Sequence record: PP449093.1
Reading direction: 5' to 3' (one strand)
Source of the DNA: Escherichia coli phage phiS
DNA length: 64,000 bases
The translations under genes and the position numbers were made by a program. The notes below the pieces were generated by a model. It was not told the origin of the DNA. It worked only from the letters and a program-made list of their open reading frames with translations, and did no database searches. Shown here in pieces: positions 4,341 through 37,116 of this stretch (positions are counted from its first letter, which is position 1; each line of letters opens with the position of its first letter).

Positions 4341-5165
4341 ATGAAATGGGAAATTGGTAAAACTTACACCTGGAAAGACGAAAACGCTAAAACTGAGTTT
4401 ATTACTAACGGAGAAGGTGTTCTTTCTCCACTTAACAGCGATATTAGTGCAGCTATTGGTGACACGCCATTTACCATCATCGAGATCGATGGCAACGGTT
4501 GGATTAATGCAATAGAGCTAGACGGTGTTTATCATACGGCGAAAACTGCTACAGGAAAAGACATTTGGACTGCAACATATTTCTTTAGTCCATTCGATAG
4601 AAAATTCTTTCGTGAAGTTGAAGAAGTTCCCCAGAAATGGGAAGTTGGTAAAACTTATACTTGGAAAGATGCGAATGCTATGACCGACTTCTGTCATTAT
4701 GCTGAAAACGTATCTAATCTTAATTATGTTATTGCACGAGCAATAAATTATAGACCTTTTACTGTTAAAAATGTTAGTCCATGTGGGCAAATTGATGTAA
4801 TTGAAATTGATGGTAAAGACCATACTCTAATGAGCGCAACCGAAGATAGAGACCATAAAGGAACTAGCTGGTTTATTGATTCTGATAGAAAATTCTTTCG
4901 TGAAGTAGAAGAATTGGAAGTTATAACCACTGATTCTAAAATCGTTGGACAGTTGAAACGTCTGTTTAGTAGTCGTTACGGCCTGACAATGGTTAAATTT
5001 GGCGAAGCAAATGAAGGTAAAACCTTTGAACGTTTCGATGACTTCATTACAGCACTTGACAAGATGGATGAAATCATGCAAGATCGCCAGAAGATTAAAG
5101 ACCTTCAAGAAGACATTAAACGTCGTGAAGTTGAATTTTTGATTGGTAAAGAGCGAGGTTGGTAA
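4341..5165 (+). CDS. Paralog family member 3, carrying two tandem copies of the domain
   Basis: MKWEIGKTYTWKD...FDRKFFREVEEV, then a second copy KWEVGKTYTWKD...SDRKFFREVEEL. Confidence 0.7.
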   Translation: MKWEIGKTYTWKDENAKTEFITNGEGVLSPLNSDISAAIGDTPFTIIEIDGNGWINAIELDGVYHTAKTATGKDIWTATYFFSPFDRKFFREVEEVPQKWEVGKTYTWKDANAMTDFCHYAENVSNLNYVIARAINYRPFTVKNVSPCGQIDVIEIDGKDHTLMSATEDRDHKGTSWFIDSDRKFFREVEELEVITTDSKIVGQLKRLFSSRYGLTMVKFGEANEGKTFERFDDFITALDKMDEIMQDRQKIKDLQEDIKRREVEFLIGKERGW

Positions 5166-5166
5166 T

Positions 5167-5664
5167 ATGTTTGTTGATGGTAATATGTTTGTTGTTGGTA
5201 TGACCTATCAGTGGAAAAACGAGCGAGCGCGGAAAGCCTTTGCAACCAGTGTTGCAAATGATGCAATAGCAGACTTTATCGGTGACCGTACATTTAAAGT
5301 TATCGCTTTTGAAAAAATTGCGTCAGATATCGAATATGTTTCTGCGATTGAAATTGATGGAAAAACATACACCTGTCGAGATGTTGATGATGTACGGGAA
5401 TACGCGCACAACTGGTTTTTGCAATCCGAAGAACGTTATTTTAAAGTGGTGTCGTCAGAACTGACTACTGATGCAATGTTGGAACAATTTTTCAACAACT
5501 ACGAAGTTTCTGTACGTCGCTATGGCGAAGAAGAAGTGTTTAAAATCGATGATTACAATCAGTTTAAACGAGTATTCGCCACTAAGTTACAGCGTGATTT
5601 TGAACGCGAGAATCGAATCAAGGAACTGGAAGAAGAACTAGAAAGATTAAAGGCTGAGAAATGA
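5167..5664 (+). CDS. Paralog family member 4 (divergent)
   Basis: MFVDGNMFVVGMTYQWKNE...NWFLQSEERYFKVV with a coiled-coil tail. The gene starts with an 18-nt near-tandem duplication. Confidence 0.6.
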   Translation: MFVDGNMFVVGMTYQWKNERARKAFATSVANDAIADFIGDRTFKVIAFEKIASDIEYVSAIEIDGKTYTCRDVDDVREYAHNWFLQSEERYFKVVSSELTTDAMLEQFFNNYEVSVRRYGEEEVFKIDDYNQFKRVFATKLQRDFERENRIKELEEELERLKAEK

Positions 5665-5930
5665 TCGAGATATACGGCATACCGAAAGAGGCTTATCATT
5701 GTTATGGTTGTATTAGTGCAATGAAGCTACTGGATGATCTGGGTATTCCGTATACACTTAAACCAGTATTCAAGCAGGTCGGGGTTGACATTATTCCCGA
5801 CCGTGATATGATTGAAGAACTGGCGGGGAGGCTGAACTCAAAGAGCCTCCGGTTTGTATACCCCCAGATATTCATTGACAACGAGCACATTGGAGGCTAT
5901 AAAGAACTGAGGGCGATTTATGATTATTGA
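5661..5930 (+). CDS. nrdC: Glutaredoxin/thioredoxin-like protein NrdC
   Basis: 89 aa with CYGC redox motif and glutaredoxin-like C-terminus ...IGGYKEL. T4-like position near the nrd genes. Confidence 0.75.
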   Translation: MIEIYGIPKEAYHCYGCISAMKLLDDLGIPYTLKPVFKQVGVDIIPDRDMIEELAGRLNSKSLRFVYPQIFIDNEHIGGYKELRAIYDY

Positions 5931-6078
5931 GAATTTAGTTTCGGTATTCATTATTGCTTTATTTGCTATAATGGCTTTACCGTTGAAGAAGTGTAAACAC
6001 TGTAACGGAACAGGATTGCGTGGTGATGGGTGTTGCGCTCATTGTCATGGATCTGGTAAAGTAAGTATCATTAAGTAA
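5920..6078 (+). CDS. Small membrane-anchored protein with DnaJ-type CxxCxGxG zinc-finger repeats (52 aa)
   Basis: My own translation, not in the track: hydrophobic N-terminus VSVFIIALFAIMALP, then CKHCNGTGLRGDGCCAHCHGSGK. Start overlaps the nrdC stop. Confidence 0.4.
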   Translation: MIIENLVSVFIIALFAIMALPLKKCKHCNGTGLRGDGCCAHCHGSGKVSIIK

Positions 6079-6099
6079 TTCTTGAGTGAGGAATATATT

Positions 6100-6387
6100 A
6101 TGTTAGTACACAATGCAATCGCACACATGGTTTATTCTCGATTTGGGCGCAGGGAAGAAATCAATATTACCGACGCAGATTTAGATCTGATGCAAGTCGA
6201 AGGCCAGACATATCTGAAAAATAACGGCGTGAATATCGGTAAAGCGCGTGTGCGTGAATTGTTGGTTGAATATATTCTCTCTGAATTTGGCATTAGTGCT
6301 TTCGGTGTGAAAGAGCTTGCACCTAAGCGCGAAATTTCTGATAAAATGATCAAGAAATGCCAGAAAGCACGACGTAAGGGTTTCTAA
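6100..6387 (+). CDS. Hypothetical protein (95 aa)
   Basis: ATG at 6100 after GAGGAA. Confidence 0.5.
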   Translation: MLVHNAIAHMVYSRFGRREEINITDADLDLMQVEGQTYLKNNGVNIGKARVRELLVEYILSEFGISAFGVKELAPKREISDKMIKKCQKARRKGF

Positions 6388-7856
6388 TGAAGATTGAAAC
6401 ATTAATCGCATTGCCAGCGGCGGGGAAAACTGATGCTATACTTTCCCACGTCCTAGAGACAAAAGAAAAAGCGGTTATTGCTTCGCCATCTCGTGTTTTA
6501 AGTGAACAATCTTACAATAAGTTTAAAAGAATGGGCGGTCGTGCTGTCTTGATCGATAGCACAAGACTAAGAAGCCTTAAGACAGTGCAAGCGTCGATAA
6601 TGCAATCAGTTAAAGACGGTGCTGATGTGATATTCATTACACATACAGCGTTATCTAATATGGAACGTTCAAAAATGTTTGGTGAATATGCTCTTTACAT
6701 TGATGAAGTTCCTCAACTGGTTGAATTTAATGAGTATCCGTTTAAGTCTAATCTTGAACTTATCACGAAGCATTGCGAACCAATCGCCGACGAATCGGAA
6801 TGCCTACAGAACTTAGTTCTAAAAGACTCTGAGAAGGCCGCTATCAAAGAAAAGATAGAAAGTGCAAAGGATGGTACTGATATGATCGATTCTTCTCTTA
6901 GAGGGCTTTATGAGGCGTTATTAGAGAAGAAAATCAACGTTATGGTAAAACATAACGAAGGACACCGGAAGAATGGGTCGAAAATTGTTTTCTTGAACGA
7001 TAACAAACACGGTACGTGGGGAGACTTTAAAAAGGTTACGATAGCATGTGCAAATCTCTTTGATACATATAGTGGGAAGTATCTACGATACTATGCAAAT
7101 TGCGATTTTGTTCCGAGTGCGCTAGAATCCAGACTATATTTCAAAGAGTATAAAAATACAGATAGAGTTAATATCATCCTTATGACGGACTCCGAACGAT
7201 GGTCGCGTCACCAGTCAGAAACAAACAATACCTTTGAACGTCTTGTTGATATGGTTAAAAATGAATGTGGTGATGACTTCATTTATACCGTTAATCGGGA
7301 CCGTGAAGCGTGTACAAATGGTATTGGTGAGCGGATACCTTACGGATCTTATGGTCTTAACTCTTACATTCATCATAAAAATGTTGCTGTGATGTTCAGC
7401 TTTAACCCTCAACGATGGGAGATTGATATTTTAAAAGGTCTTGCTAATAGTTGTGATCTCCCGACAAATGAGTTTTTGAAAGCGCGTCATGTGTCTGATT
7501 ATCTGGAACCAGCATTTCAATTATGTTTGCGTTGTAACCTGAGAGACAACGAGAGCAAGGAGAATGTTAATCTATATGTTCCTGATTGGGCGTTGGTGGA
7601 TTATCTAAAAACGTTTCTACCTAATGCCAATGTAATAACAGACCGAATGATTCCGCTAGAATGTGGTGAGCGTAAAGGGCGAAAATCATTTAAAAAGATG
7701 TTCGACTTTAACGAGCAAGAGAATGCAAGATTTAACGGATTTAAGTACCGCATGAAGAAAAAAGGAAAAACTCTTGATCCGTCTGACGGTGAATCAGTAG
7801 AGATGGTTAGAGTGTGGATAACTAAGCAAAGAAAGTATAATGGCAATGGGGAATAG
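6387..7856 (+). CDS. P-loop NTPase of unknown function (489 aa)
   Basis: Walker A-like LPAAGKT near the N-terminus and Walker B-like ALYIDEV. No assignable family. Confidence 0.65.
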   Translation: MKIETLIALPAAGKTDAILSHVLETKEKAVIASPSRVLSEQSYNKFKRMGGRAVLIDSTRLRSLKTVQASIMQSVKDGADVIFITHTALSNMERSKMFGEYALYIDEVPQLVEFNEYPFKSNLELITKHCEPIADESECLQNLVLKDSEKAAIKEKIESAKDGTDMIDSSLRGLYEALLEKKINVMVKHNEGHRKNGSKIVFLNDNKHGTWGDFKKVTIACANLFDTYSGKYLRYYANCDFVPSALESRLYFKEYKNTDRVNIILMTDSERWSRHQSETNNTFERLVDMVKNECGDDFIYTVNRDREACTNGIGERIPYGSYGLNSYIHHKNVAVMFSFNPQRWEIDILKGLANSCDLPTNEFLKARHVSDYLEPAFQLCLRCNLRDNESKENVNLYVPDWALVDYLKTFLPNANVITDRMIPLECGERKGRKSFKKMFDFNEQENARFNGFKYRMKKKGKTLDPSDGESVEMVRVWITKQRKYNGNGE

Positions 7857-35007: not shown

Positions 35008-37116
35008 ATGAAAATGCATATTGATAATGAAGAAGTATTTGGTAGTGACCTGAGCGGTGCGGTTGATTTTTCACTGAAAGCAAGTAGCAAGGCTTTTATG
35101 GTGCTTTCTAAGAATACCTATCAATATTGTGAGCGTGCTTGCGTCCGTGAATATTCATGTAATGCTACCGACACTCACAAAGAAGCCGGAACCTTAGACC
35201 GTCCGTTTGATATTCATTTACCGACTGCAATCGAACCGTATTTTTCTGTGCGTGATTATGGTACTGGTATTCCGTCTAAGAAAGAATTAGAACAACTGTT
35301 TACGGTTTACTTTGAATCAACAAAAGACCAGACTAATGACTATATCGGATCTTTTGGTTTAGGTGCGAAGTCTGCGTATAGCTATACCGACACCTTTACA
35401 ATCGTAAACTATTACAATGGTCGCGCTTATGGCTTTACAGCATTTGTGCAAAACTCTATGCCGAAAATGGTGCAGATTTTCGACGAACCGACCTATGAAG
35501 ACAATGGTCTGAAAATCACTATTCCGGTGAAAGAAAAAGACATTCAGACATGGCATCGAGAAGCGCAATTTGTACTGCGTCATTTTGGGGAACACAAACC
35601 TAATATCAATGCAATCGAAATTAATTATTTCCCTAGCTTTGATAATTATTATGTGTGTAATGGGCGTGATAACGATTCCTATGTAGTATATGCAATCATG
35701 GGTAAGATTCAGTATCCGATCCCGTATGAATATGTTCGCGGAACATGGTTAGAAGCTGTAAACCGCCAGCACCAGACCATTTACATTAATTTTGAGTTGG
35801 GTGATCTGGACCTGATGCCATCGCGTGAAGAAGTTCACTTGTCAATTGAGACTAAAGCGAACATCGAAAAACGTATTGCAGAAATCAATGAAATGATGTT
35901 GGAAAAGGTCAAAGAGAAGATCGCCAACATTAAAACAGAGCGTAAACTTGCGCAATTTATGAGCGAGTATTCATCGACTCAACGCAATATTATTAGCAAG
36001 ATGGGTAAGATCGGACAATGGGATGATCCGGTAGCAATCTATAATAAGTTTGTGAATGCGGGTAAAGATTCGCCTAATGACGTAGAAGGTCAGGTGTATA
36101 CTCTGTATCGTACTCGTCACACAATCAGTAAATTGCGCCCTGCTTTCGTTAGAAGTCAATACAACATTACGCATTTTGTATGGATGCATAAAGAAGATAT
36201 TCTGTGTGTAATTGATGATACCGATAAACCGAAACTGCGTGCACTGACTCTTAACGGCATGGTCCAGGAATACGGAATCAATAAAAAGGTACTTGTGTTC
36301 CGTCAGCGCAACGAAAAACATATGGAGACTTTCGAGTACATCAAACAGTATTATGATGATTCTGAAATGACCGTGATTAAAGTGTCTGAGGCCGATGATC
36401 TGCGTGCTAAAGCAGTTAAACCGGAGAAGACCGAGCGTACACAACATGAAGCGACTCCTAAGCTGCCTAACGTGTATATCATGGAAAAGATTGGTGACAG
36501 TTGGCATAAAACCAGCCATCACATGAAAGCGGCAGAGATTCGCGAGTTATCAGGCTTGCACATGTTCCGCGTAGGTGATGCATTCGAAAGCCGTAGTCGT
36601 AAATCGATCCATAGTGAAAATACATTACACACGGCGCTTGACTACTTCGGGGTAACAAAGTATATTATTACCCGTAACGAGACACAAAAATATCTCGTTG
36701 ACGAACAATTGGAATGTGCGCTAGAATTTGTTCGCGGTAAGCTGGCTGGTCTGGCTAAGAAGGTTAAGACCAATCATCTGGGGTATGGCGAATATCTGGG
36801 TGTGATCACTATGTTGTTTCATGACGATGAACTAGAACGCTGTGTTCCAGAATTTATTGACAGACTGTACGGTCGTCATTATAATAAAGAGGTTTCCAAG
36901 TTACTCCTTCGCACCCGTTGGATTATGGACGAAGAAACTAAAAAGATTTGTGATGAAAAATTCACGGCAGCAAACGAACGAATTAAAGCAGTTTGTGCGA
37001 AGTTTAAAGAGAATAGCCCGTTACTGTATGATATTGTAGATAACTGGTATCGTATTCTGCATAACGACAAACGCGCACAAGACTTTATGAAACTGGTTAA
37101 GAATGTTAAATTTTAA
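35008..37116 (+). CDS. rIIA: rIIA protein (GHKL-ATPase-like)
   Basis: 702 aa with DYGTGIP and GSFGLGAKS motifs; sits between 39 and rIIB as in T4. Confidence 0.85.
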   Translation: MKMHIDNEEVFGSDLSGAVDFSLKASSKAFMVLSKNTYQYCERACVREYSCNATDTHKEAGTLDRPFDIHLPTAIEPYFSVRDYGTGIPSKKELEQLFTVYFESTKDQTNDYIGSFGLGAKSAYSYTDTFTIVNYYNGRAYGFTAFVQNSMPKMVQIFDEPTYEDNGLKITIPVKEKDIQTWHREAQFVLRHFGEHKPNINAIEINYFPSFDNYYVCNGRDNDSYVVYAIMGKIQYPIPYEYVRGTWLEAVNRQHQTIYINFELGDLDLMPSREEVHLSIETKANIEKRIAEINEMMLEKVKEKIANIKTERKLAQFMSEYSSTQRNIISKMGKIGQWDDPVAIYNKFVNAGKDSPNDVEGQVYTLYRTRHTISKLRPAFVRSQYNITHFVWMHKEDILCVIDDTDKPKLRALTLNGMVQEYGINKKVLVFRQRNEKHMETFEYIKQYYDDSEMTVIKVSEADDLRAKAVKPEKTERTQHEATPKLPNVYIMEKIGDSWHKTSHHMKAAEIRELSGLHMFRVGDAFESRSRKSIHSENTLHTALDYFGVTKYIITRNETQKYLVDEQLECALEFVRGKLAGLAKKVKTNHLGYGEYLGVITMLFHDDELERCVPEFIDRLYGRHYNKEVSKLLLRTRWIMDEETKKICDEKFTAANERIKAVCAKFKENSPLLYDIVDNWYRILHNDKRAQDFMKLVKNVKF

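Follow-up and report, generated by a model that had tools for sequence, protein, structure and literature searches.

The 52-aa peptide encoded at 5920..6078 on the plus strand of the window (the whole 64,000-nucleotide stretch of Escherichia coli phage phiS, PP449093.1, that we analysed) is best explained, taken as a whole, as a membrane-tethered zinc-knuckle protein-binding module, a reading to which we give a probability of about 0.5. The peptide is already on record as a hypothetical protein, and its domain can be recognised; its gene is real, and it is not a DnaJ chaperone. According to the explanation that we favour, it would be a bitopic inner-membrane protein from a region that is transcribed early in T4-type phages, and would presumably be expressed early itself. 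A 4-residue acidic N-tail without K/R would face the periplasm, a single transmembrane helix (about residues 5-22) would act only as an anchor, and C25/C28 together with C39/C42 would hold one Zn2+ in a 30-residue cytoplasmic domain. This domain is predicted to fold as a beta-hairpin, a zinc knuckle of the type known from the cysteine-rich domain of DnaJ and from anti-TRAP, which would offer a protein-protein interaction surface at the cytoplasmic face of the membrane and bind a partner during infection, thereby inhibiting, sequestering or recruiting it.

A small gene overlapping a glutaredoxin gene

The complete coding sequence (5920..6078, plus strand; stop codon TAA at 6076-6078) translates to MIIENLVSVFIIALFAIMALPLKKCKHCNGTGLRGDGCCAHCHGSGKVSIIK and is orthologous to RB49ORF046c / UniProt Q7Y3T0 / phrog_3931. 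The first-pass annotation, made from the letters alone, had called the peptide unannotated, which was true only of its own track of open reading frames and wrong for public data, where the gene has been annotated since the RB49 genome: it is the 'hypothetical protein' RB49ORF046c / AAQ15321.1 in GenBank, it is labelled 'putative membrane protein' in phage Ec_Makalu_002, and it was already listed by Nolan et al. 2006 (PMC1524935). A profile match (E=4.3e-10, peptide residues 7-48 against profile positions 15-56 of 59) indicates that it belongs to phrog_3931, a phage protein family without assigned function. The searchable literature holds no functional, experimental or expression study of this gene, nor of any phage protein that combines a transmembrane helix with CxxCxGxG motifs.

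As the first-pass annotation had noted, the start overlaps the stop of the upstream glutaredoxin (nrdC) gene: the ATG at 5920 lies inside 5661..5930 (plus strand), giving an 11-nt overlap (5920..5930, plus strand), and a Shine-Dalgarno-like GAGGG (5908..5912, plus strand) is found 7 nt 5′ of it. GAGGG is retained in five lineages, and locus L045 carries AAGGAGAG in its place. Overlaps of 8-11 nt are present at the five divergent syntenic loci that have an overlapping glutaredoxin call (L039, L040, L042, L045 and L046); at a further locus, L041 (allele P0003), the two genes are separated by a 9-nt gap. The upstream product is an NrdH/NrdC-type glutaredoxin of 89 aa with a CYGC active site, which we treat as context that does not imply a functional partnership with the peptide. 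Its naming differs among records: RB49 has nrdH (glutaredoxin), and phage Makalu has 'NrdC thioredoxin'. Downstream, and again as context only, lies a gp55.2 homologue (DUF7570; 6100..6387, plus strand). T4 has no counterpart of the peptide gene between nrdH and 55.2, and when T4 genes 55.1-55.8 and rIIA.1 were translated the motifs were found in none of them. Judging from its sequence, a sigma-70-type promoter-like site inside the glutaredoxin gene (5785..5812, plus strand; TTGACA-16-TATGAT with TG), 108-135 nt 5′ of the ATG, might serve the peptide gene as an early promoter.

The open reading frame is intact in 58 of 58 Krischvirus records at an amino-acid identity of at least 95%, and a megablast-level search returned Krischvirus records only. 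Metagenomes contributed five divergent alleles (38-85% identity), which sit between the glutaredoxin gene and 55.2 wherever downstream sequence is present and whose length differences are all in frame. The zinc-finger half is under purifying selection, with pN/pS of 0.07-0.41 among four closely related alleles (window, P0003, P0013 and P0018) and of 0.07-0.78 over all pairs; dN/dS of the whole gene is 0.16-0.58 among the same four alleles and 0.16-0.88 over all computable pairs. The helix diverges faster than any other part of the gene, retaining its hydrophobicity and not its sequence; its ungapped pN/pS (about 1) cannot be relied on, since indels put the alignment out of register, and we use it only to describe an anchor without sequence constraint. 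Given the intact frames in Krischvirus records, the exclusively in-frame indels and the constrained finger, the earlier proposal of a genuine small protein-coding gene holds, and we regard it as a genuine accessory gene of Krischvirus (RB49-like, T4-type) phages. Peptide identity falls to 50-85% between phages whose glutaredoxin and 55.2 flanks are 94-98% identical, and the variation is located in the helix, the inter-knuckle loop and exposed knuckle residues. This local divergence could come from regional mosaicism, other variable patches being present, rather than from an arms race.

A predicted zinc-knuckle domain behind a hydrophobic helix

The peptide begins with the K/R-free tail MIIE (residues 1-4; 5920..5931, plus strand), in which an acidic residue is conserved and which, by the positive-inside rule, should lie in the periplasm. 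It continues into the predicted transmembrane helix NLVSVFIIALFAIMALPL (residues 5-22; 5932..5985, plus strand). The single hydrophobic helix of the first-pass annotation is supported both by hydropathy, the Kyte-Doolittle mean being 2.4-2.5 for the best 18-19-residue windows within residues 2-22, and by the AF2 model, in which residues 2-19 are helical. The two CxxCxGxG repeats that it reported, beginning at 5992 and 6034, are perfectly conserved. The first knuckle, CKHCNGTG (5992..6015, plus strand), contains C25, C28, G30 and G32, and the second, CAHCHGSG (6034..6057, plus strand), contains C39, C42, G44 and G46; these eight are the only invariant columns in an alignment of 17 family members. 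Conservation of the Cys pattern in relatives, which the first-pass annotation had itself named among the points on which its claim would stand or fall, is thus found for all four cysteines. An extra cysteine, C38, which forms a 'CC' doublet, is frequent in the family and not invariant. The six-residue loop between the knuckles, LRGDGC (6016..6033, plus strand), varies among alleles and has the same length as in anti-TRAP and between DnaJ motifs 3 and 4. Only six residues follow the second knuckle, the C-terminal tail KVSIIK (6058..6075, plus strand), which is a beta-strand in the model; the pattern GK(V/I/R)(S/T)(I/M) occurs in all six Krischvirus-type alleles, three of which have GKVSI. When all six frames of the 64-kb window were scanned, CKHCNGTG and CAHCHGSG were the only intact matches to C..C.G.G, the third match being interrupted by a stop codon. 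Chance does not account for a pair of such motifs, set 14 residues apart, in a single short open reading frame and none elsewhere in 64 kb.

The AF2 model consists of the helix and a hairpin, with a pLDDT of 76 overall and of 80-86 in the finger. Its best Foldseek matches in the PDB were anti-TRAP structures (3LD0, 3LCZ and 2BX9; rmsd 0.8-1.0 Å over 29-30 residues, probability 0.85-1.0), with E-values that are weak (best 0.08) because the domain is tiny. Compared with solved structures, the family profile matched the DnaJ cysteine-rich domain 1EXK (E=1.7e-11), 6JZB (4e-7), 2CTT (1e-6) and anti-TRAP 3LCZ (E=1.3e-6). The cysteine spacing of the peptide is C-x2-C-x10-C-x2-C, which we take to be that of anti-TRAP as well; in the profile alignment to DnaJ, motifs 3-4 aligned without gaps, with the same Cys spacing, and motifs 1-2 with a 3-residue gap. 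These comparisons point to a DnaJ-type cysteine-rich zinc-knuckle motif, in the sense of a domain class and not of a protein family. With two repeats instead of four, one zinc centre is expected instead of two, and we infer a single Zn2+ chelated by C25/C28 and C39/C42.

The term 'DnaJ-type' in the first-pass annotation therefore stands for the motif, given the profile match to 1EXK, and fails as a family assignment: the peptide has neither a J domain nor a G/F region, carries two repeats and not four, and scores below the cut-off of PF00684 (14.6 bits against 32.7), with sub-threshold matches in 15 of the 17 members. The NCBIfam DnaJ model TIGR02349 also stayed below threshold (18.8 bits against 377), and the Pfam DnaJ model of the J domain gave no match to the 52-aa peptide at E<=1, residues 1-22 being taken up by the hydrophobic helix. 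The RtpA model NF058604 was likewise below its cut-off (12.8 bits against 65), and PF15777 (anti-TRAP) matched five of the 17 members (best E=0.0075). The C-terminal domain of GRXCR1/2, PF23733, reached 17.6 bits against a threshold of 26 (E=0.0036) with the window peptide, in a match limited to a single knuckle (residues 22-33), and matched one of the 17 members. A weak match to Pfam Gad1 (E=0.16 with the window peptide and, at best, E=0.0064 in a single one of the 17 members) and the lambda Q matches were judged to reflect the motif or the hydrophobic stretch and were set aside.

On the model, anti-TRAP is the nearest solved fold and a closer structural relative than DnaJ (best match 0.8 Å over 30 residues). 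Anti-TRAP (RtpA/AT) of Bacillus is a zinc protein of 53 aa whose action is purely one of protein binding, TRAP being inhibited in this way. The phage peptide resembles it in size and in having a single Zn(Cys)4 site, predicted in the peptide, that is built from two adjacent DnaJ-like knuckles. Anti-TRAP is soluble and has an N-terminal finger followed by a helix for trimer and dodecamer assembly, whereas the phage peptide has an N-terminal membrane helix and lacks the C-terminal oligomerisation helix. To our knowledge, TRAP is absent from E. coli. DnaJ/Hsp40 type I proteins (PF00684; 1EXK) share the identical form of the CxxCxGxG motif, but contain four motifs, two zinc centres with non-adjacent pairing, and J, G/F and C-terminal domains; in 1EXK, motifs 1+4 and 2+3 are paired. 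Arabidopsis FIP (FtsH5-interacting protein, At5g02160) has a mature form of 9 kDa in which a membrane anchor precedes a C4 finger that carries two CxxCxGxG repeats at the C-terminal end; lacking a J domain, it exposes the N-terminus to the lumen and the finger to the stroma, and it binds FtsH5 (PMC5915565). The phage peptide is like FIP, which we know from that paper's description, in architecture only (one anchor, a C-terminal two-repeat finger and no J domain), and the luminal N-terminus and stromal finger are the equivalent of an N-periplasmic, C-cytoplasmic arrangement. FIP differs in being a plant thylakoid protein confined to land plants, and architecture alone cannot transfer its FtsH binding to the phage peptide.

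Relatives in other phages

When the window peptide and those of the Felix and Erwinia types served as queries, word-indexed protein searches gave 3, 7 and 1 matches, all of them close relatives, so that distant relatives were reached only by an exhaustive profile search. The latter returned 348 matches, including about 15 small proteins with a transmembrane helix and two motifs, and distant relatives of the same architecture were found in Ounavirinae phages. Small proteins of Felixounavirus and Kolesnikvirus (wV8 gp138; 'dnaJ' of Erwinia phage Panisse) are true homologues, of the same length class and architecture and with the same invariant residues; they are 27-45% identical to the window peptide and are encoded 5′ of rIIA, not 3′ of a glutaredoxin gene. 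The label 'chaperone protein DnaJ' on the Erwinia phage copies is an over-annotation. Wherever an Ounavirinae-type locus includes downstream sequence (some 20 IMG/VR loci together with Panisse, L048 and L050), rIIA starts 18-75 nt past the peptide stop, with one exception, in which an HNH endonuclease is inserted between the two genes. The Ounavirinae homologue is flanked by variable genes and rIIA, and not by glutaredoxin; since the neighbours differ by lineage, gene context singles out no one partner.

Several candidates were rejected as members or counterparts of the family. The protein of IMG/VR locus L007 (43% identity over residues 2-46) is a soluble 102-aa protein in another context, with three CxxC motifs of which two match CxxCxGxG, and L012, L016, L017 and L029 encode large acidic marine-phage proteins with only a C-terminal motif pair. 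The outlier P0099, which has an MRRR N-terminus, is probably not an orthologue. Further small phage proteins that lack a J domain and have a pair of CxxCxGxG-type motifs are RB43 ORF179c and ORF191c, gp45 of Acinetobacter phage Loki and a protein of Bacillus phage Riggi, the last two compared by the papers' descriptions only. ORF179c and ORF191c, the DnaJ-zinc-finger ORFs of the literature, are soluble, with no transmembrane helix and a different inter-motif spacing, and we do not consider them counterparts. In a scan of bacterial genomes, the best 80 of 85 relatives came mostly from Bacteroidales MAGs; nearly all span residues 22-52 only, a few extending back to residue 13 or 18, and the narrow search pattern found no full-length homologue with both helix and finger among these best 80. 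By these searches, the distribution of the protein with both parts appears to be phage-restricted. PADLOC and Rfam gave no match.

Possible partners and competing readings

Anti-TRAP and BSD2, both among the structural matches, act through binding other proteins, and FIP, alike in architecture and in the topology predicted for the peptide, binds the membrane protease FtsH; by analogy a binding or inhibitor role may be inferred for the knuckle. The remark of the first-pass annotation that such peptides are often regulatory is, for this one, a guess. Any order of candidate targets is a guess as well; ours would place the membrane-proximal proteostasis proteins FtsH and DnaK/DnaJ of the host first, the phage rII proteins second and the adjacent glutaredoxin third. 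The T4-like phage RB43 manipulates the DnaK/sigma32/FtsH axis, and the authors of that study suggested a part in this for its small DnaJ-zinc-finger ORFs (PMC3486835). Small membrane proteins of phages have been little studied, and they often act in host takeover or against exclusion; the peptide, with 52 residues, one anchor and one predicted zinc knuckle, is a compact, well-defined and very tractable case. Its family is conserved in two groups of enterobacterial myoviruses that are not related to each other, and phage-therapy collections make use of several of these phages. Identifying the partner would assign a function to phrog_3931 and to many 'DnaJ-like' phage mini-proteins, and would also correct the 'chaperone DnaJ' annotations now spreading in databases. 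A bolder form of the binding-module explanation, that the peptide is the founding member of a class of phage-specific, membrane-tethered, anti-TRAP-like inhibitors that capture a host protein at the inner membrane, is improbable in our estimation. If it were true, the targets might be FtsH, DnaK/DnaJ or a membrane-associated defence or abortive-infection effector, the allelic hypervariability between near-identical flanks would reflect an arms race with the target, and the linkage to rIIA in Ounavirinae would point to a shared anti-exclusion module.

The rival that survives best, itself unlikely, is that the peptide is a redox partner of the adjacent glutaredoxin, its Cys4-zinc centre at the membrane working as a thiol switch or in thiol-disulfide oxidoreduction, with the co-translated NrdH-type glutaredoxin reducing or regulating it. 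Such a function has been reported for the DnaJ cysteine-rich domain and for plant LQY1, CYO1 and ZnJ6. The overlap with the glutaredoxin stop, which is kept in the window and five divergent loci despite glutaredoxin identities down to 55-66%, would fit such a pairing, but stop/start overlaps are usual in this tightly packed region (e.g. 5143..5664 with 5661..5930) and are therefore no sign of partnership; moreover, the Ounavirinae homologue is not beside a glutaredoxin gene. Eukaryotic GRXCR1/2, in which a glutaredoxin-like domain is fused to a DnaJ-like cysteine-rich domain (PMC6114524), offer a precedent for the combination, echoed by the match of the peptide to their C-terminal domain (E=0.0036), yet this match covers one knuckle in one of the 17 members and is below the cut-off. 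ZnJ6 is reported to be a thylakoid-membrane DnaJ-like protein with oxidising activity (PMC7865324). The extra cysteine C38, common in the family, would also fit this reading, but it is not invariant.

Similarly improbable is that the peptide belongs to the rII system, as a component or as its membrane anchor, and would work with the membrane-associated RIIA/RIIB proteins in protecting membrane integrity, timing lysis or escaping prophage exclusion. The close spacing to rIIA (18-75 nt, with the single HNH insertion) extends across subfamilies that are only about 30-45% identical to one another, and both products are expected at the inner membrane, as is generally known for rII. However, the adjacency may come only from both genes lying in an early operon where the genome conventionally begins. 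In the window, rIIA lies 29 kb off, at 35008..37116, preceded by an unrelated 85-aa open reading frame, and T4 has rII without such a peptide, its rIIA.1 protein being unrelated.

Lower again we place the possibility that the finger copies the zinc centre of DnaJ and engages or jams the host DnaK/DnaJ cycle at the membrane, which is the reading behind both 'DnaJ-type' and the 'dnaJ chaperone protein' annotation in Erwinia phages. The family profile does find bona fide DnaJ proteins (340-380 aa, two stretches in each) at E-values of 1e-9 to 1e-5, in line with its match to 1EXK (1.7e-11) and the sub-threshold PF00684 matches in 15 of 17 members, and RB43 provides a precedent together with its authors' hypothesis (PMC3486835). 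Against this, the absence of a J domain makes stimulation of the DnaK ATPase impossible, the one predicted zinc centre would be formed by adjacent motifs as opposed to the 1+4 and 2+3 pairing of DnaJ, only metal-ligand and turn residues are conserved with no DnaJ surface residues shared, and the RB43 ORFs cited in support are soluble and differently spaced.

The binding-module explanation places the knuckle in the cytoplasm, and its sequence features make N-out/C-in in the inner membrane the most likely topology. In 16 of the 17 members there is no K/R before the helix and there are at least two after it, usually with an acidic residue before it, and in the window protein KK follows the helix immediately. 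Several Felix-type members have net acidic C-domains, which leaves the K/R-free N-tail as the main basis of the positive-inside argument. For a Zn(Cys)4 site, the reducing cytoplasm is required. We consider very unlikely the opposite topology, in which the hydrophobic stretch is a signal-anchor and the Cys-rich C-domain is exported and disulfide-bonded in the periplasm, as in a superinfection-exclusion or envelope-targeting peptide. Thirty residues with five to six cysteines would suit a disulfide-knotted periplasmic domain, and many small T4-type membrane proteins are generally known to act in the envelope; however, both the invariant glycines and the spacing correspond to zinc knuckles, and the distribution of K/R on the two sides of the helix speaks for the finger being inside. 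The MRRR N-terminus of P0099 is typical of an N-in protein, but comes from a probable non-orthologue.

Lastly, a spurious open reading frame, or a sequence kept because it contains something other than a gene of its own (an RNA element, a promoter or the glutaredoxin 3′ end), might be suggested by its shortness and its overlap with promoter-like matches, but is effectively refuted already by the lack of an Rfam match, by two motifs that are unique in the window, by a protein motif kept across phage families that have no DNA match at megablast level, and by indels that are in frame only and a finger pN/pS below 1.

A catalogued small gene between the glutaredoxin gene and 55.2

The peptide is encoded at 5920..6078 on the + strand (translation MIIENLVSVFIIALFAIMALPLKKCKHCNGTGLRGDGCCAHCHGSGKVSIIK), where local genes are tightly packed and all lie on that strand. 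Its ATG falls inside the upstream 89-aa glutaredoxin ORF (5661..5930), close to the 3′ terminus, giving an overlap of 11 nt, and a Shine-Dalgarno-type GAGGG lies 7 nt 5′ of this ATG on the same strand. The hydropathy peak covers residues 2-22 (mean Kyte-Doolittle about 2.4-2.5), and a C..C.G.G scan placed the motif CKHCNGTG at 5992 (+) and CAHCHGSG at 6034 (+), so that the ORF, its start inside the glutaredoxin 3′ end, the hydrophobic helix, and the two CxxCxGxG repeats are all as the first-pass annotation had described them. In six-frame translation of the whole 64 kb these are the only intact matches to the pattern, which excludes chance as an explanation of the pair. No Rfam family matched the region on either strand, and the strand opposite the gene carries only ORFs of 27-37 codons.

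The peptide had also been called unannotated, whereas it is already catalogued publicly. DNA identity to window positions 5400-6600 is 95-99% in 58 phage records of GenBank, which we place in the RB49-like genus Krischvirus (Straboviridae) from the organism names seen and two records opened. The gene order in RB49 is nrdG, four hypothetical ORFs, nrdH (glutaredoxin), RB49ORF046c, 55.2, RB49ORF044c (DEAD-like), and 55, and the orthologue RB49ORF046c is deposited as a 'hypothetical protein' (AAQ15321.1). The peptide also has a UniProt entry (Q7Y3T0, with a BFVD model), matches phrog_3931 (E=4e-10), and is labelled 'putative membrane protein', with a predicted RBS, in Ec_Makalu_002; Nolan et al. 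2006 list the gene with only a weak N-methylation-motif match (PMC1524935). It is a known, catalogued hypothetical gene with a recognisable domain class, and its interest is modest: it offers a neat target for experiments and corrects an annotation, but is no surprise.

Several lines of evidence indicate that the gene is very probably real and has the helix-plus-finger architecture, a spurious ORF being effectively excluded. First, tblastn recovered the protein at ≥95% identity in 58 records, the same number as the DNA matches. Second, exhaustive HMMER profile searching of 1.84 billion representative proteins turned up five divergent alleles (P0003, P0013, P0018, P0063, and P0078; 38-85% identity mutually and to the window peptide). 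Wherever downstream sequence is available, they lie in the same position, with the glutaredoxin gene before them and 55.2 (DUF7570) after. These five retain the Shine-Dalgarno sequence, and the glutaredoxin stop overlaps the peptide start by 8-11 nt in the five loci compared; a short second contig with P0003 (L041) has a 9-nt gap instead. Allele lengths range from 52 to 59 aa, with every difference in frame. Third, dN/dS for the whole gene is 0.16-0.88 across every computable pair and 0.16-0.58 among the four closely related Krischvirus-type alleles; pN/pS in the 27-codon zinc-finger part is 0.07-0.41 among the same four and reaches 0.78 in pairs with P0063. Lastly, the same architecture occurs outside the genus, in Felixounavirus wV8 gp138 (58 aa), Kolesnikvirus Erwinia phage Panisse (54 aa), and other Ounavirinae-type phages. 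Across the 17-sequence alignment (27-87% identity to the window peptide), invariance is confined to C25, C28, G30, G32, C39, C42, G44, and G46; the cysteine pattern, whose conservation in relatives had been proposed as a test of the feature, is thus clearly conserved in all 17 sequences.

Several deposited versions of the Felixounavirus-type proteins (P0006, P0007, P0008, P0009, and P0010) are frameshifted within or before the finger, yielding 63-aa products that end ...VVALCVVVLVKCLISNLTVN, through either homopolymer sequencing errors or real finger loss in some isolates.

A probable single zinc knuckle on a membrane anchor

AlphaFold2 with the family alignment modelled a helix (residues 2-19) and, after it, a small domain with a beta-hairpin (mean pLDDT 76 overall, 80-86 in the finger). 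When the family profile was searched against PDB sequences, the matches included the E. coli DnaJ cysteine-rich domain (1EXK, E=1.7e-11, over two stretches, motifs 1-2 and 3-4), DnaJ 6JZB (E=4e-7), 2CTT (E=1e-6), anti-TRAP 3LCZ (E=1.3e-6) and 2BX9 (E=7e-4), and several lambda Q entries (E about 3e-4). The structures closest to the model were anti-TRAP 3LD0, 3LCZ, and 2BX9 (rmsd 0.8-1.0 Å over 29-30 residues), followed by DnaJA2, BSD2, and lambda Q, with weak structural E-values, as expected for a domain of only 30 residues. The cysteine spacing C-x2-C-x10-C-x2-C aligns without gaps to DnaJ motifs 3-4, and anti-TRAP has the same spacing, its two adjacent knuckles sharing one zinc. Together, the spacing, sequence, and structure matches suggest that the soluble part is best described, on this model, as a single-zinc half of the DnaJ cysteine-rich domain, or an anti-TRAP-like knuckle.

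The earlier designation 'DnaJ-type' stands for the motif class, given the 1EXK match, and fails for family membership. The peptide lacks a J domain and a G/F region and carries two repeats where DnaJ has four. Its score falls short of the curated PF00684 threshold (14.6 vs 32.7 bits), as do the matches of 15 of the 17 family members, and it also misses the NCBIfam thresholds for DnaJ (about 18 vs 338-619 bits) and RtpA, the anti-TRAP model (12.8 vs 65 bits). A narrower label, 'single anti-TRAP/DnaJ-CR-type zinc knuckle on a membrane anchor', should replace it. The 54-aa Panisse homologue (L004 2471-2635) is labelled 'dnaJ: chaperone protein DnaJ', an over-annotation given the absent J domain and one that is spreading in Erwinia phage records.

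The segment before the helix contains no Lys or Arg in 16 of 17 members and usually has one acidic residue, every C-terminal domain has at least two K/R, and KK directly follows the helix in the window peptide. By the positive-inside rule this charge pattern predicts an N-out/C-in topology, with which a Cys4 zinc site in the reducing cytoplasm is also consistent, and the finger is probably a single cytoplasmic zinc knuckle. In its short acidic N-tail the peptide resembles small proteins whose N-tail is translocated on membrane insertion, Pf3 coat being an example.

Candidate functions and genomic context

We found no functional study in the literature of this gene or of any phage protein combining a TM helix with CxxCxGxG motifs. 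Anti-TRAP (53 aa), whose fold the peptide shares, acts only by binding another protein and so blocking it. The same architecture and predicted topology, with one anchor, a stromal finger of two CxxCxGxG repeats, and no J domain, are found in Arabidopsis FIP, a protein isolated through its interaction with the membrane protease FtsH5 (PMC5915565). In the T4-like phage RB43, the J-domain protein Rki recruits DnaK and stabilises sigma32 against FtsH, and small DnaJ-zinc-finger ORFs, soluble unlike the window peptide, were proposed by the authors to take part (PMC3486835). On these precedents we favour a membrane-tethered, zinc-stabilised protein-binding module. Early in infection it would work from the cytoplasmic side of the inner membrane, and its target would most plausibly be found among the host proteostasis factors. 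By analogy, we put such a binding or inhibitor role at roughly 0.4-0.5, and any particular named target would be improbable.

One rival is a redox partnership with the overlapping glutaredoxin, for which the conserved overlap, the eukaryotic GRXCR1/2 fusions of Grx with a DnaJ-like cysteine-rich domain (PMC6114524), and a sub-threshold PF23733 match can be cited; however, overlapping stop and start codons are routine in this region, and the Ounavirinae lack the glutaredoxin neighbour, their upstream genes varying among NAMPT/NAPRTase, ProQ, and small unknowns, with nrdG in one lineage. Downstream, rIIA starts 18-75 nt after the peptide stop in every Ounavirinae-type locus extending downstream (about 20 IMG/VR loci, Panisse, L048, and L050), with an HNH endonuclease intervening in one locus. 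This strict adjacency would suit a component of the rII system, a reading contradicted by Krischvirus, where the window rIIA (35008..37116) lies 29 kb from the peptide gene and is preceded by an unrelated ORF, and by T4, where neither the stretch from nrdH to 55.2 nor the one upstream of rIIA carries a homologue. A DnaK-directed DnaJ mimic sits poorly with the missing J domain, and an exported disulfide-rich domain with the predicted C-in topology.

As far as a limited pattern search shows, the TM-plus-finger family appears phage-borne: 185,579 bacterial and archaeal genomes yielded no full-length homologue, and the finger-only matches, mostly in Bacteroidales, almost all cover residues 22-52 among the best 80 of 85, a few reaching back to residue 13. 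A different use of the same two-knuckle module occurs in four marine IMG/VR contigs (L012, L016, L017, and L029), whose very large, strongly acidic proteins (hundreds to about 1000 aa) each carry a single C(D/E)HC(D/N)GxGKHG..DCxxCxGxG pair near the C-terminus.

Expression, mosaicism and neighbouring ORFs

A near-consensus sigma-70-type match (TTGACA-16-TATGAT, extended TG) lies at 5785-5812 (+) inside the glutaredoxin gene, ending 108 nt 5′ of the peptide ATG. The two most divergent loci keep corresponding sites (TTGACT-16-TACAAT in L046 and a perfect TTGACA-17-TATAAT in L045) despite different encoded amino acids, which suggests that an internal early promoter may serve the peptide gene, 55.2, and the DEAD-like gene, as judged from consensus matching.

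Between the window and the phages carrying P0018, P0013, and P0003, protein identity is 94-98% for the flanking glutaredoxin and 55.2 but only 50%, 67%, and 85%, respectively, for the peptide itself, and DNA identity in 5920-6019 is 0.68-0.82, compared with at least 0.92 in the flanks. Synonymous divergence in the peptide gene exceeds that of its neighbours, a pattern that speaks for the swapping of old alleles (mosaicism) no less than for rapid point evolution. Other patches of the region are variable too (4620-4900, 5220-5400, and the DEAD-like gene over its whole length in some phages), so we take the hot spot as no proof of an arms race. The differences between alleles lie in the helix, with hydrophobicity kept, in the inter-knuckle loop (LRGDG, VTYNG, INNTG), and at exposed x positions of the knuckles, and the Krischvirus group keeps a GK(V/I/R)(S/T)(I/M) tail (GKVSI in 3 of 6 alleles).

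Scored against L039, L040, and L042-L044, mosaic patches at 4620-4900, 5220-5400, 5920-6100, and 6520-7600 have 47-82% DNA identity in phages otherwise 92-100% identical. Nearby, a 274-aa ORF (4341-5165, +) carries, as a tandem pair, a domain of about 95 aa (KWE(I/V)GKTYTWKD...DRKFFREVEE), and a 173-aa ORF (5143-5664, +; phrog_5347) contains a third, more divergent copy (GMTYQWKNE...EERYFKVV) and weakly matches the goF mRNA-metabolism modulator phrog (E=0.008). The 489-aa RB49ORF044c protein (6387-7856, +; phrog_2467) matched no NCBIfam family, its sole match being a borderline one to a DEAD/DEAH N-terminal domain (27.4 bits, cut-off 26); it is a putative helicase or ATPase conserved beside gene 55. 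Its gene occurs as two alleles of about 65% nucleotide identity, which assort independently of the peptide alleles.
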